Source: a virus (Duplodnaviria; Heunggongvirae; Uroviricota; Caudoviricetes). Taken from it: a stretch of 24,545 nucleotides of DNA. Made by a program: the position numbers and the translations under genes. Within the stretch, counting starts at the first letter, position 1. Each line of letters starts with the position of its first letter. The stretch lies in the IMG/VR virus record IMGVR_UViG_2579778797_000010; one strand, given 5' to 3'. Shown in pieces: positions 4 to 18,284 of this stretch. The notes under the pieces were generated by a model, which did not search any database, was not told where the DNA came from, and saw only the letters and a list, made by a program, of their open reading frames with translations.

Positions 4-486
4 TCAATATTCCAGACAGACTCGCGGTTCATTTAAGCATCCATGCCCGCCCTGAACTCCGGGCACACCGTAAGTAAAATCAGCCACCCACAGCTGGTCA
101 GGACGTTCTGCCACGAACTGACGGTTTACGCGGTCGCCTGCGGCAACGGCTTTCCGGCTGATGGTCGTACGGACCTTTTTACCCCGGAGAACACCGGCAA
201 GTCCCATAACCGCCATGAGACGTGCCACAGTGCATCTGGCCACTCTGATACCTTCCCGTAACAACTGACGCCAGACTTTACGCACACCGTATACCTGGTG
301 ATTTTCATCGTATACGCGCTGTATCTCTTTCTTCAGCCAGTCATCGCGCTGCGCACGGGCACTGCGTTTATCCGGATGATGTCGTTGTTGCTGACAGTGG
401 TAATACGTTGACGGGGCAATATGCAGTTCGCTGCATAGCGGTCCGACCCCGTACTGCTCACGCAGCTTATCCAGCAGTGGCATCAT
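4..486 (-). pseudogene. IS3-family transposase OrfB, truncated (only N-terminal ~139 codons are transposase-like)
   Basis: Translation matches the IS3-family OrfB N-terminus up to QLWVADFTY (first D of the DDE motif), then diverges and stops at 4-6. Confidence 0.8.
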
Positions 487-863
487 TTTTTCCAGAGGCG
501 GTCGAACTCCGCCTTCGCAAAATAAGCGGAAGCCTGGCGAAGGATATCGTTACTGCGGCGCAGTTCACGATTTTCACGTTCCAGCTCTTTCAGACGCTGA
601 CGTTCAGCGGTGGTGAGCCCGCCATCACCGCTTCCGGTATCCCGCTCATGCTGGCGTACCCAGACACGCAGAGTCTCCGGCGTACAGCCAATCTTTGGAG
701 CAATGGAACAAATTGTCGCCCATTGTGAGTCATATTCGCCCTGACTTTCCAGAACCATACGGACTGCCCGTTGACGGACTTCGGGGGAAAAACGAGTATT
801 TTTAGTCATCCTGTTTACCTCTTTCTCAGGGAGTTTAGTCTCCAGGATTCCCGGGGCGGTTCA
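70..863 (-). mobile_element. Partial IS3-family insertion sequence (IS629/IS1203-like), distal part missing
   Basis: Minus-strand terminal inverted repeat TGAACCGCCCCGGGAATCC ends at 863. orfA and orfB overlap at 483-486. orfB similarity stops just after the conserved ADFTY motif near nt 70. Confidence 0.75.
483..809 (-). CDS. IS3-family transposase OrfA (HTH and leucine-zipper part), IS629-like
   Basis: 108-aa [22 protein letters not shown]...[33 protein letters not shown] at 807-809. Ends in GGAAAAAATGATG, where the orfB ATG overlaps the stop (typical -1 frameshift window). Confidence 0.85.
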
Positions 864-3948: not shown

Positions 3949-4155
3949 CTTCATTTTCACTTTTTTAAATCCAACGACAGACGGCTGGCATTTAAGTATT
4001 GTGAAATATTATCAAATGTAATCATCATTGATTTACAAAAGATACATTTTGCCCCGAAAGGATTCATGTCAGAAACATCAAAAGATGATGTTCTATACTG
4101 GGAACCATGACAACACGGGCATCTAAAGTGAATATGGTTTGTAATATTGTCTACC

Positions 4156-4368
4156 TCAAAGCGCCACTACATGAACAGCGGCAGGACCTTTAGGTCCGTT
4201 CTCAATACCAAATTCAACTTCCTGATTCTCAGTTAATGTTTTGAAATCGTTGCTCTGAATTGCTGAGAAATGGACAAACACATCTTTGCTGCCATCTTTC
4301 GGCGTGATGAAACCAAAACCTTTTTCAGGGTTAAACCATTTCACTAAACCAGTCATTTTGTTAGACAT
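4156..4368 (-). CDS. cspI: Cold shock protein CspI
   Basis: 70-aa product [70 protein letters not shown]; ATG at 4366-4368 checked. Confidence 0.95.
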
Positions 4369-4731
4369 AATTATTACCTTTTGAAGAAATTAGCCCTTGG
4401 GCAGAATGGTCCGAAAAAAAATATCAGAGAGAAAAACCAACAAGGAAATCTCAAGAGGTACAAATAATAAAATTATAACAATGACTGCTTCAGATAAATT
4501 TGTAACAAACCAGAACACCATTAACGCATGATTAACCACCCATAGCAAGGATTACTTTTGTAAAGAAAAACACAGCAATGAAAGAATAGCTTTATTTATT
4601 AATAATAACGTGTCATTCTGATTAAGACCTTTTATCTTACCCTTAAGATTTCAGGAGTTTTGGCTCATGGAAGAGTCCTTTTTATTTAAATTTTACATTC
4701 CGCGATGTAAATGTTCCGATTTAATATTACC

Positions 4732-6760: not shown

Positions 6761-7040
6761 AGATTGTGGTGCTTTTTGTGGGAGTCATCCACTTACGCAC
6801 TTTGTTTTGCCATGCCAGCAGTTAGCTTCTGCTGTAAAACTATTCATGCAGCAAACCTGCACTTCACCACAATGGTTAGCATACTTTTCCTGATTAAGAT
6901 TTTGCCAAATATGCTGGCCATTGTTTCATGTATTGGACCTCCTTAATTTTTATTAAAGAAATCCAATATTCACTACTCTGTCCGTATCTCTACTCAGGCA
7001 TCAGCCTTCTTCGTTATCGTATACAGACGAGCGATGAATT

Positions 7041-7256
7041 TTAATCAGTAATGATGACATTTGCTGCTGCAGGACCTTTAGCACCACTCTCTATAGAGAA
7101 GGTAACCTTTTGACCTTCAAATAAGGTTCGATAATTATCATTCTGAATCGCAGAAAAATGCACAAACACATCTTTACTACCATCAACAGGAGAAATAAAG
7201 CCGAAACCTTTATCAGCGTTAAACCATTTTACTAAACCAGTCATTTTATTTGACAT
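7041..7256 (-). CDS. cspB: Cold shock protein CspB
   Basis: 71-aa product [71 protein letters not shown]; start and stop verified. Confidence 0.95.
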
Positions 7257-7556
7257 TCTACATTCCTTAACTTGAGCCTTTCGGCATAAATGGTTTGCAT
7301 AACAGAAACGACTTCGTACTTAATTGGAGAGACTCAAAGAAGGAATAAGTGAATAACACCTGAAATGAGAACTGCTTTAGTAAACTACTTCGTATATCGT
7401 CTGTTCTTCAAACCGACGCAATCATTAACGCATAGTTGAACATATGAAGCAATGTTTATTTTAGACATCCAGCCATCTTCAACCCCATCAAAAAACTATA
7501 GCTTTCTTCAGGAACGTGTGTATAGTGCGCCAAGTTATCAGTATTAAGGAATTTTT

Positions 7557-16465: not shown

Positions 16466-16873
16466 ATGAACGAGAAAACTTTAGGTCAACGCATTAGAGA
16501 AAGACGTAAGCAGGTAGGCTTAAGTCAAAACGGTTTAAGCAAAGCTGCTGGCGTATCTGGCTCATCAATTTCATTATGGGAAAGTGACCATACAGCCCCG
16601 CGCGGGCAAAATTTGCATCGCCTCGCCGAGGTATTGCAATGTTCACCAACTTGGATACTGTTTGGCGACGAGGACAAAACACCAGCTCCCCCTGTTTCAC
16701 TCGATAGTGCCTTAGACTTATCGGAAGATGAGTTAGAGATGCTGCGTTTGTATCGCGCACTTCCTAAATCAGAGCAACAAGCACAACTCAGCGAACTCCG
16801 CGCCCGCGTTGAGAATTTTAATCGCCTGTTCACCGAGCTATTAGAGGCTCGCAAACGCAACAAGCATCAATAA
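16466..16873 (+). CDS. dicA: CI-like XRE-family repressor (DicA homologue)
   Basis: 135 aa; N-terminal XRE HTH (LGQRIRERRKQVGLSQNGLSKAAGVSGSSISLWE); C-terminal half shares the QCSPTWILFGDEDK motif with DicA. Confidence 0.75.
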   Translation: MNEKTLGQRIRERRKQVGLSQNGLSKAAGVSGSSISLWESDHTAPRGQNLHRLAEVLQCSPTWILFGDEDKTPAPPVSLDSALDLSEDELEMLRLYRALPKSEQQAQLSELRARVENFNRLFTELLEARKRNKHQ

Positions 16874-17065
16874 TCATCCCTTCACAAAATTTTAAAGCCT
16901 TACATTTCAATGTATTGGCTTTATCTTGCGCCAACACTTGAGTTTTCTCATCAAAAAAACTTGACGAAAAATAATGAGAAAACTAAATTACCTCCATCAA
17001 GACACCGCACGGTGTTCTCAGCAAACAGTTCCGCTACCCCGGCGTTAAGGGGAAATGAGGTCAGC

Positions 17066-17221
17066 ATGGATACTATCGATCTTGGCAACAGCGAATCTCT
17101 GGTATGTGGCGTGTTCCCCAACCAGGACGGCACGTTCACCGCGATGACGTATACCAAAAGCAAAACGTTTAAAACCGAAAATGGTGCCCGTCGCTGGCTG
17201 GAAAGAAACTCAGGTGAGTGA
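17066..17221 (+). CDS. ydfA: YdfA small protein
   Basis: 51 aa from the internal ATG at 17066 (GAGG SD): MDTIDLGNSESLVCGVFPNQDGTFTAMTYTKSKTFKTENGARRWLERNSGE. Confidence 0.8.
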   Translation: MDTIDLGNSESLVCGVFPNQDGTFTAMTYTKSKTFKTENGARRWLERNSGE

Positions 17222-17222
17222 T

Positions 17223-17798
17223 ATGGATTTCGACACAATCATGGAAAAGGCTTACGAAGAATACTTCGAAGGCCTTGCCGAAGGCGAAGAAGCTCTCAGC
17301 TTCAGTGAGTTTAAACAGGCACTCAGAATAAGAATGTGCTCTCACAATGACGCGGAGCACAAATATGAGAAGCAAAATCAGACCGCAGAAAATTTTGTTC
17401 TGGAACCCGGAGAAACGCTTTTCAAAATTCCCGTTACGTGCCCCATTTGCGGTTTTACATCAGAAGAACTTGACGACTCCTGTAACAATCAGGAAACAAC
17501 CAAGTATGTCGAAGATGATACCGAGTGCGCACGAAGAACGATTATATCCACGAGTCCAAACTCCAGGACCAATAAATCTCACTATGAGAGGGTGATTAAT
17601 CCACTCCCCCAAACCAATAAAAAAGATGCCGGAGGACAAAAAACCCAATGGAACAACGGGATATCTGTCAAAAAAAGACGTTCCATTAAAGACAAACAAC
17701 GCAGCGCCAACAACTGTAAGAGCTTTATACCAGTAATCAATTTTCATGTTCTTAAGCGAATTTATTGGTGGTTGCGACATTGCTTAATGAATCCTTAA
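17223..17798 (+). CDS. YdfB/YdfC-region ORF (191 codons from the coupled ATG); 3' half of doubtful coding quality
   Basis: ATG at 17223 two nt after the ydfA stop; N-terminal part MDFDTIMEKAYEEYFEGLAEGEEALSFSEFKQALRIR and CPICGF are protein-like, C-terminal part is K/N/R-rich low complexity. Confidence 0.4.
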   Translation: MDFDTIMEKAYEEYFEGLAEGEEALSFSEFKQALRIRMCSHNDAEHKYEKQNQTAENFVLEPGETLFKIPVTCPICGFTSEELDDSCNNQETTKYVEDDTECARRTIISTSPNSRTNKSHYERVINPLPQTNKKDAGGQKTQWNNGISVKKRRSIKDKQRSANNCKSFIPVINFHVLKRIYWWLRHCLMNP

Positions 17799-18056
17799 AA
17801 CTGTGGTGATTTTAAGGATACCACCTCGCCTGACGTGGTTAAAAGCAGGCACACAACACGAAAGCGCACGGCGAAGTTCGTCTCACTGTACGGTGTCGTT
17901 AAATTTAATTCGACCGTGCGCTTCCGGTTGTGGCAACCCGCAAAATGGCGCGGCGGTAAGTATGGCGGGGTTATTCCTTCCCCGTTGAGGACACCGGGTT
18001 GTCAGGTTGACCATACGCTTAAGTGACAACCCCGCTGCAACGCCCTCTGTTATCAA

Positions 18057-18115
18057 TTTTCTGGTGACGTTTGGCGGTATCAGTTTTACTCCGTGACTGC
18101 TCTGCCGCCCTTTTT
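18057..18115 (+). ncRNA. dicF: DicF small RNA (ftsZ/cell-division inhibitor sRNA)
   Basis: TTTCTGGTGACGTTTGGCGGTATCAGTTTTACTCCGTGACTGCTCTGCCGCCCTTTTT matches DicF as I recall it, including the terminal GC hairpin and U-tail. Confidence 0.85.
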
Positions 18116-18284
18116 AAAGTGAATTTTGTGATGCGGTGAATACGGCTAAGCGCACGCGGAACAGTTAAAACCAAAAACAGTGTTATGGGTGGATTCTCTG
18201 TATCCGACGTTAATTGTTAACTGGTTAACGTCACCTGGAGGCACCAGGCACTGCATCACAAAATTCATTGTTGAGGACGCGATA

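Follow-up and report, generated by a model that had tools for sequence, protein, structure and literature searches.

The window analysed here, a 24,545-nucleotide (nt) stretch of a Caudoviricetes genome (IMG/VR record IMGVR_UViG_2579778797_000010), is a Qin/DicB-type lambdoid prophage region in which two long open reading frames (ORFs) face each other between ydfA and the DicF small RNA, with dicB and ydfD following DicF on the same operon (Table 1). Gene A, on the minus strand, encodes 106 amino acids (aa); ORF B, on the plus strand, runs across the whole of gene A in exact codon register, each plus codon being the reverse complement of a minus codon, and stops 5 codons past the gene A start. 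From its first ATG the plus ORF would span 17181-17798 (205 aa); from the ydfB ATG at 17223, which overlaps the ydfA stop (TGAtATG), it has 191 aa. A first-pass annotation of this DNA had suggested that a membrane-protein gene is hidden on the minus strand opposite ydfB/ydfC, and that one of the two overlapping frames is probably not real. We consider it very probable that gene A is a real, reversed accessory membrane gene within the early operon, and that the B frame is kept open by selection while its sequence is free to vary.

Table 1. Features of the gene A/ORF B locus and its surroundings (coordinates in the window unless a locus is named)
Feature	Position	Strand	Details
dicA-like repressor gene	16466-16873	+	
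Promoter-like site TTGACG-17-TAAATT	16961-16989	+	between the dicA-like gene and ydfA; promoter scan
ydfA	17066-17221	+	
ORF B	17223-17798	+	191 codons and TAA (17796-17798); chimera of ydfB codons 1-34, CPxCG segment and antisense of gene A
ydfB remnant	17223-17323	+	first 34 codons (102 nt of ydfB present); common to K-12 Qin
Terminator-like hairpin with T-rich tail	17264-17283	-	about 180 nt downstream of gene A; promoter/terminator scan
Mosaic module, 517 base pairs (bp)	17324-17840		B-only segment, gene A and its 5' region; homology break against K-12-type Qin
B-only segment	17334-17459	+	about 42 codons; internal ATG (M38) at 17334; CPICG at 17439-17453; conserved peptide LEPGETLFKIPVTCPICGFT
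Gene A	17460-17780	-	106 aa; ATG 17780-17778, TGA 17462-17460; ORF listing
Perfect 10-bp inverted repeat ATCCTTAAAA-N9-TTTTAAGGAT	17791-17819	-	just upstream of the gene A ATG; includes the ORF B stop codon
Invariant TGGTATCCT	17815-17823	-	extended -10-like; inside invariant block GTGGTATCCT
Transfer RNA (tRNA) genes and equivalent spots	window about 17841-18058; L050:2225-2302; L011:3952-4033; L013:3482-3563; L010:5802-5875		
DicF small RNA	18059-18110	+	next operon element 3' of the module; Rfam RF00039, 76.7 bits, E=1.4e-15
STnc100 match	18122-18262	+	Rfam, sub-threshold: 34.3 bits vs gathering score 47; E=1.6e-5
cspA-type 5' untranslated regions (5'UTRs) and ALIL pseudoknot	7025-7417, 4129-4514, 412-528	-	

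Gene A is an intact, ATG-started ORF, and its peptide is exactly the one quoted in the first-pass annotation. A protein search returned 60 homologues, nearly all of 100-110 aa and down to 34% identity; homologues of equal length at 34-57% identity come from Yersinia enterocolitica, Herminiimonas aquatilis, Reinekea marinisedimentorum and many metagenomes. The 13 positions that are invariant in an alignment of 44 sequences form the family motifs IDYWYKA, immediately ahead of helix 1, and GLGEWINHP, where helix 2 ends. A profile search of 1.84 billion cluster representatives (clusters at 50% identity) recovered 487 gene A clusters at E<=1e-3, of which 219 also pass E<=1e-10; nearly all are stand-alone proteins of about 100 aa. 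Scanning one genome per species gave 29 loci from several phyla: Gamma- and Betaproteobacteria, Arcobacter, Desulfobacterota-type genomes and Polyangia, together with metagenome-assembled genomes labelled Nitrospirales, Phycisphaerae and Actinomycetes.

The AlphaFold2 model of the gene A product (mean predicted local distance difference test score, pLDDT, 84.4) contains helices at residues 17-32, 42-62 and 85-105 and a β-hairpin at 65-79. The three helices agree with the three hydrophobic segments picked out in the first-pass annotation, which had predicted two to three. Scans of Pfam, NCBIfam, PHROG and PADLOC gave nothing significant for gene A, matches to TMEM238 and DUF7103 were discarded at E=0.11, and neither gene A nor ORF B matched any PADLOC-DB v2 defence profile at E<=1. 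On this comparative evidence gene A is a bona fide gene for a predicted inner-membrane protein of about 106 aa with three transmembrane (TM) helices, a member of a widespread family that lacks a curated description.

Substitution patterns distinguish the two frames clearly. Over 15 lineage pairs drawn from six enteric lineages, the ratio of nonsynonymous to synonymous substitution rates (dN/dS) is 0.12-0.19 in the gene A frame as against 0.6-1.9 in the B frame over the overlap, and changes concentrate at the third codon positions of gene A (12/7/34 over the three positions between the window and Escherichia sp. L054). The codon and substitution comparison of both strands, as proposed with the first-pass annotation, thus favours the minus frame. 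A scan of IMG/VR kept 80 loci, all E. coli-type copies 97-99% identical, which were used as a population sample and not as new lineages; a further candidate lineage (L136) was rejected, as it is an E. coli module copy full of frameshifts. The population sample comprised 24 ungapped E. coli-type haplotypes out of 84 loci and holds 23 single-nucleotide polymorphisms (SNPs) in the overlap. Fourteen of these are synonymous in A and nonsynonymous in B, while the nine that are nonsynonymous in A divide into four synonymous in B, three nonsynonymous in both frames and two nonsense in B. Read in the B frame, the same SNPs are 4 synonymous versus 19 nonsynonymous or nonsense. A check for stops in homologues gave the same answer: the minus frame is intact in 24/24 ungapped haplotypes, whereas the plus frame has nonsense and frameshift alleles. 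Within the overlap we find purifying selection on the amino-acid sequence of A only.

These results bear on the converse view that only the plus ORF is real, as in the annotation of the isolated phage HannyBb, in PHROG 35040 and in some records of the Prokaryotic Genome Annotation Pipeline (PGAP), the membrane ORF being its shadow. The plus ORF does fit the orientation and the tight spacing of the operon, and it has been deposited most often: database cluster P0204, which holds it, has 1798 members versus about 280 for the membrane protein in its two main clusters (141+137), about sixfold more. However, most distant gene A homologues have 3-17 stops in the plus frame and yet keep the minus ORF, its length and its 13 invariant residues; the substitution patterns fit the minus frame alone, and a confident fold is predicted for A and not for B. 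We give this view practically no credence, and regard it as already refuted by the homologue stops, the invariant residues and the substitution patterns. The suggestion of a hidden minus-strand membrane-protein gene is borne out by dN/dS, SNPs, homologues and the AlphaFold2 model.

The plus strand is A-rich over the overlap, as had been noticed (A 123, T 66, C 72, G 60), and its frame is open to an unexpected degree. In-register antisense stops opposite gene A number zero in every enteric phage lineage, that is, in the E. coli types (83-100% identity in A), the P0013 type (57%), Yersinia (51%), and mEp390 and Pantoea (about 40%). Local codon usage predicts 2-5 B-frame stops per gene, with a probability of zero stops of 0.001-0.11 per locus. 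The codons of gene A that would place a stop in B are TTA, CTA and TCA. Over five enteric phage lineages they account for 0/72 codons of the TTR-Leu, CTN and TCN boxes, while A-ending codons make up 85/309 (27.5%) in the other boxes of the same genes (Fisher p=2.2e-9). A general avoidance of A-ending or rare codons as the cause of the open frame was consequently rejected, given the 27% of such codons elsewhere in the same genes.

Several controls place the effect in this frame and in these lineages. Among 14 non-phage gene A homologues there is no avoidance (A-ending codons 120/275 in the stop-making boxes versus 299/807 in the others); the other two antisense frames contain 1-4 and 9-16 stops; lambda sieB, a gene of reverse topology and similar GC content, has 9 in-register antisense stops in 185 codons; and B-frame stops return 5-12 codons past the end of the overlap. 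Because the avoidance of TTA, CTA and TCA is frame-specific and absent in the controls, the codon data argue that selection keeps the B frame free of stops, with the amino-acid sequence of B in the overlap unselected. The first-pass expectation that one of the frames is not real was therefore too simple: the B frame is unconstrained in sequence yet kept open.

Outside the overlap ORF B has a conserved segment of its own. The B-only segment ends exactly at the codon opposite the gene A stop, and its last ~20 codons, read in the B frame, specify a peptide that, next to the window sequence of Table 1, reads KPGEILCRIPVVCPVCGFT in Escherichia sp. L054, VGEDICFIPTECPICGFV in P0013-type prophages, NEEIFSIPIECPICGFR in Yersinia and PPGATITPFYFNCPKCGHR in Roseateles aquae (40% identity in A, 64% GC). 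In five lineages (E. coli, Escherichia sp., P0013-type, Yersinia and Roseateles) a CxxC pair stands 21 nt past the gene A stop and in the same frame, and the motif IPxxCPxCGF is conserved with differing synonymous codons for the same residues (CCC/CCT/CCA, GGT/GGA/GGG, TGC/TGT, ATT/ATC/ATA). An RNA element or terminator in this 3' flank of gene A was rejected (RNAalifold consensus -0.2 kcal/mol, single-sequence z-score 0.01), as was an extension on the gene A strand, since the +1 frame has no start codon and meets a stop after 10 codons in Roseateles. Because the peptide is conserved with synonymous variation, RNA structure is absent, and the frames of the A strand contain stops or lack starts, the B-only segment is, on comparative grounds, to be regarded as coding.

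We note that the minus strand at 17380-17459, in the +1 frame from the gene A stop, shows a mirrored peptide, D(V/T/L)KPQxGHxxGI (core KPQxGHxxGI), in the enteric lineages. It is probably to be attributed to wobble positions in common with the B frame, although a frameshift extension of gene A in the enteric lineages stays formally conceivable.

Start signals for B are found at positions compatible with the operon. Shine-Dalgarno sequences followed by an ATG occur in L054, L011, L006, L023, L019 and L024: L054 has GAGG-N5-ATG behind a ydfA-type leader, L011, L006 and L023 have AAGAG or AGGGGG, and the ATG of phage mEp390 gp39 is preceded by AGGGGTAGG. In the window, where B is the third ORF of the early operon, its start is coupled to the ydfA stop through the ydfB ATG, with the ATG at 17334 as an internal alternative; the Rac-like, P0013-type and Yersinia lineages have B as the leading ORF behind the repressor gene. 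The B frame of some Rac-like E. coli lineages (P0210-P0212) continues without a stop beyond the gene A start and across the intergenic hairpins (alignment columns 200-313), and enters a further in-frame ORF starting MQKREPVIIAPD, with predicted proteins of 245-271 aa.

With both segments of ORF B described, the simplest alternative can be weighed, namely that gene A alone is real and the plus ORF is a chance shadow, the codon-register antisense frame being the one most prone to long openness. It would account for a B-frame dN/dS (ω) of about 1 or more over the overlap, for the low-complexity K/N/R composition of B and its mean pLDDT of 46.7, for nonsense and frameshift alleles of B arising while A stays intact, and for PGAP usually calling no B. 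It would leave unexplained the frame-specific codon avoidance, which neither the non-phage homologues nor lambda sieB share, the CPxCG peptide, which lies outside the overlap, varies synonymously and recurs in a betaproteobacterium, and the Shine-Dalgarno and ATG starts where an early operon would have them. We consider a chance shadow improbable.

What, then, would be selected in B? One reading is that both strands encode functional proteins, B being an early phage protein with a CPxCG segment and a basic disordered tail. It might neutralise A and so free the phage from self-exclusion, the part that Esc plays towards SieB; alternatively, as the leading ORF of the early-left operon, it might act on RNA or transcription. 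Selection for openness and the conserved N-terminal segment point this way, as do its place as first ORF after the repressor gene with a good Shine-Dalgarno sequence in the Rac-like, P0013-type and Yersinia lineages, the intact B of both isolated phages, HannyBb and mEp390, and a UniRef entry that labels the Roseateles protein an FmdB-type zinc-ribbon protein. The (aromatic)-x-CPxCG-(F/H) knuckle of B does resemble the first half of such a ribbon (PF09723). However, B has one CPxCG and no second CxxC, matches nothing in Pfam at E<=1, and has low pLDDT in this segment; in the model of the 191-aa product only the ydfB-derived residues 1-40, which form helices, exceed 70. The overlap shows no amino-acid constraint, a confident fold is lacking, and the cysteines are absent altogether in the mEp390/Pantoea lineage. 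A functional B protein, including these examples of its action, is possible, and we hold it with reserve.

The other reading is that B is a pass-through ORF, in which translation itself is selected and not the product. Ribosomes crossing the ~320 nt of A-rich antisense would block Rho-dependent polarity or decay ahead of dicF, dicB and exo, and would ensure read-through and full antisense coverage of gene A. Openness without sequence constraint is what this would produce, and the two N-terminal extensions of B, the CPxCG type and the mEp390 type, have only the open frame in common. In mEp390 the B' frame (gp39) is packed between cro and cII with gaps of 36 nt and 16 nt, stops return within 5-12 codons of the end of the overlap, and lambda, which has N antitermination, tolerates its 9 stops opposite sieB. 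The conservation of the CPxCG peptide would go unexplained, and ~490 nt of untranslated RNA follow the B stop in any case, as discussed below. We entertain the pass-through reading, ribosome transit and antisense coverage included, as a tentative one.

The alleles of B recovered from E. coli-type and related prophages suggest where such selection would act. Two nonsense SNPs of B lie inside the overlap, both nonsynonymous in A; L051 has a GGA>TGA change that inactivates B; L053 has a TGA within the B motif (CPVC*); L062 has a B frameshift with A intact; the B start is frameshifted in Yersinia L004 and L005; and L134 is also listed with nonsense or frameshift alleles. We read this pattern as gene A probably being under continuing selection in lysogens, cryptic prophages included, with B mattering only to the active phage. 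On this reading cryptic prophages lose B and retain A.

The plus strand had been taken for ydfB/ydfC, an identification that does not hold: the window has no ydfC and only 102 nt of ydfB, and its plus ORF is a chimera created by mosaic replacement. Aligned directly with the K-12-type locus, the window is identical at 173/174 nt up to 17323, inside ydfB, where Qin homology stops; it restarts at 17841, past ydfC. The phrog_2061 match of the plus ORF covers precisely residues 1-34. K-12 Qin has the same ydfA upstream, the same DicF, dicB and ydfD downstream and the same first 34 ydfB codons, but contains full ydfB (42 aa) and ydfC (72 aa) where the window has an unrelated 517-bp module. Since the breakpoints fall at 17323 and 17841, the alignment indicates that the module stands in for the 3' end of ydfB and the entire ydfC in Qin-type prophages. 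Among 5426 complete E. coli genomes searched by megablast, 806 (~15%) carry the module and K-12-type Qin matches the flanks only. Carriers include pathogenic lineages such as O26, as well as "FDA strain Seattle 1946", which we take to be ATCC 25922; the copy in HannyBb is 97% identical.

Small accessory cassettes have their hot spots in the slots on either side of the module. Strain A34 of E. coli has a HigB/HigA-type toxin-antitoxin pair (L050:298-962) between the repressor gene and ydfA, and a Phd/RelE pair takes the place of dicB and ydfD downstream of the module.

The orientation of gene A is conserved along with its sequence. In every enteric lineage it adjoins a CI/DicA-type repressor gene and points against the repressor/early-left strand, and it is convergent with or antisense to that strand in Yersinia, in four P0013-type prophage contexts, in Rac-like prophages, in HannyBb and in mEp390. 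The order in the window is dicA-like (+), ydfA (+), A (-) and DicF/dicB (+), with A reversed likewise in L004-6, L010-13, L053 and L054; in Rac-like prophages A lies between the repressor gene and the pRha/KilR/exonuclease genes, and in mEp390 between cro and cII. Prophage accessory loci are considered to run typically opposite to the lytic genes (PMC7067206).

Candidate regulatory elements lie around the gene. A hairpin is present at the 5' position of gene A in every enteric lineage (RNAfold, 63 nt upstream of A), with weak covariation (1 compensatory pair). The invariant TGGTATCCT is identical upstream of A in the window, L050, L053, L054, L011-13 and L004-6, and we infer that it is a candidate promoter element for gene A. 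On the other strand the site at 16961-16989 is a candidate dicB-operon (early-left) promoter, which would send antisense transcription through gene A. Terminator-like hairpins in the region are no more numerous than in shuffled sequence, and the one downstream of A is weak.

Taken together, these observations fit a scheme in which the lysogen, with its early operon repressed, would transcribe gene A from a dedicated promoter. The product would be an accessory ("moron") membrane protein, its most likely task being the exclusion or abortion of infecting phages. On induction, derepressed early transcription antisense across A would silence it. ORF B would be the early-operon reading frame that crosses the module, consisting of a CPxCG (half zinc-ribbon-like) segment followed by the antisense of A, and the selected property may be (I) ribosome transit through the antisense stretch or (II) an unstructured basic tail of arbitrary sequence on the CPxCG segment.

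Several points weigh against this scheme. Most members of the gene A family lie outside prophages and without a conserved neighbour, so that a non-defence membrane role for A is possible. The consensus promoter scan of the region did not pick up TGGTATCCT, and the Shine-Dalgarno sequence of gene A is weak. The anti-polarity argument for ribosome transit loses force, as ~490 nt of untranslated RNA in the DicF region (17799-18284) come after the B stop in any case and the overlap has a C/G ratio of no more than 1.2. Finally, B nonsense alleles occur within E. coli at a roughly neutral rate (3 among about 40 SNPs), which means that selection on the openness of B must act mainly in active phages.

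The neighbourhoods of the distant homologues are mixed and show no conserved partner, and gene A would for this reason appear to act alone. Some lie in mobile contexts, with an integrase and Ea47 in L139 and a DUF5906/VapE primase adjoining the Roseateles copy. A placement of the Reinekea homologue in an integron cassette array was dropped, a simple pattern search for attC core sites having found none.

Three further contexts may be mentioned. The Arcobacter sp. chromosome NZ_CP182343.1 has three gene A-family copies (L033, L034 and L035) at three distant positions, each with an identical match (37% identity, residues 7-98, E=5e-14), which suggests carriage on a repeated mobile element. A metagenomic locus related to that of Reinekea encodes a 430-aa reverse transcriptase (RVT_1; L009:1309-2601) two genes upstream of the A homologue; this enzyme could belong to a group II intron or be a defence-associated reverse transcriptase. 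In Herminiimonas aquatilis a DUF5677 protein of 260 aa (L003:6397-7179) follows the A homologue by 88 nt on the same strand, a pairing seen at no other locus examined.

The closest functional parallel is SieB (lambda, P22 and Rac; PF14163). Like gene A, it is a small membrane-protein gene set in reverse within a repressor-controlled early-left operon, beside the immunity region; SieB is expressed from the prophage, and lambda sieB lies at 34482-35036 (+), between N and ral (-). In Rac-like relatives gene A occupies the slot between kilR and the repressor gene, the place that sieB takes in K-12 Rac. Unlike SieB, however, A has no Pfam match at E<=1, aligns to lambda SieB in hhalign with a probability of 0.1% (E=0.46), and has 106 aa against 162-192 aa; conversely, the frame opposite lambda sieB is not open, with its 9 stops. 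Gene A is thus SieB-like in position and topology and outside the SieB family, and we infer an exclusion role for it by analogy. Reverse-oriented accessory loci, and the sas antisense RNA of sieB, have been described by Owen et al. 2020 (PMC7067206).

A quite different role, that of a membrane toxin, might also be read from the gene. A is small, hydrophobic and overlapped by an antisense transcript, as a type I toxin-antitoxin toxin would be, and the operon also includes the lysis gene ydfD; with three TM helices and about 105 aa, A is comparable in size to lambda S, a class I holin. Type I toxins, however, have <60 aa and one TM helix, whereas A has 106 aa and three, and Rfam shows no antisense family at the locus. 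As a class I holin candidate A has the three TM helices, but it ends (...VVKFF) right after TM3 with no charged tail, sits in the immunity/early region and not beside an endolysin, and has no PHROG holin match. It also occurs alone and partnerless in many genomes and is kept intact in cryptic prophages. We rejected both candidates, and rate a membrane-toxin function as quite unlikely.

Returning to an exclusion function, a more ambitious proposal is that A and B form an anciently linked sense/antisense coding pair, present in enterobacterial phages and a betaproteobacterial mobile element, in which B or its translation would be a built-in switch that shuts off or neutralises A on induction. 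We offer this as a speculative possibility; if true, A/B would be a self-contained exclusion/escape module of 517 bp using both strands.

Antisense embedded overlapping genes have been reviewed by Ardern, Neuhaus and Scherer 2020 (PMC7457138), and the A/B pair resembles those reported from E. coli (PMC7457138, PMC9927249). As with nog1, ano and laoB of E. coli and Pseudomonas, there are two long ORFs on opposite strands of which pipelines allow one. A and B both stay open across diverged lineages beyond chance, by the codon counts given above. The present pair differs from the reported ones in that the embedded gene is old and strongly constrained while the longer, containing ORF is weakly constrained, in that the second frame is supported by comparison and not by Ribo-seq, and in that the overlap is complete and in exact codon register. 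Literature searches by locus, by accession number and among overlapping-gene papers found no mention of this locus. The kind of gene that A represents, a reverse-oriented prophage accessory membrane protein, is familiar, and its family is undescribed; a preserved but unconstrained antisense frame is unusual.

Public annotation of the module is inconsistent. Most often PGAP calls nothing in it, so that a gap of 961 bp results, ydfB being flagged as a truncated pseudogene ("ydfB incomplete, missing C-terminus") and ydfC missing; sometimes it calls the minus 106-aa protein (WP_127712993.1) and sometimes the plus 191-aa protein (WP_000344958.1, WP_240765312.1). The HannyBb copy is annotated on the plus strand. 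Among PHROG families, phrog_35040 hits the plus ORF at E=3e-140 and none hits the minus protein; PHROG 35040 appears to have been built on the ORF of the other strand. A conserved membrane gene in about 15% of complete E. coli genomes is thus unannotated or placed on the wrong strand, and correcting this affects prophage annotation and searches for lysogeny functions. Gene A founds a family of about 500 clusters without a Pfam entry, and its sieB-type slot makes it a candidate, testable at little cost, for a new phage-exclusion or membrane accessory function. The pair is also a test case for bacterial antisense overlapping genes, with an open frame selected and its sequence free, internally controlled and replicated in five lineages; synonymous recoding could separate a frame translated for its product from one translated for the act of translation.

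Further features surround the module. In P0013-type prophages a tRNA gene stands just past it on the early-left strand (tRNA-Asn in L011 and L013, tRNA-Gly in L010), and in E. coli strain A34 PGAP places a "tRNA-OTHER" at the corresponding position ahead of DicF. ARAGORN detects no tRNA in the window, where a tRNA-like slot may survive in degenerate form as the DicF precursor region. The sub-threshold STnc100 match spans from immediately 3' of DicF to the dicB start. Elsewhere in the window, Rfam identifies two cspA-type thermoregulator 5'UTRs (158.8 and 112.8 bits), which probably belong to the Qin cold-shock gene paralogues, and an ALIL pseudoknot (120.2 bits), which serves IS3-family transposases as their frameshift element.

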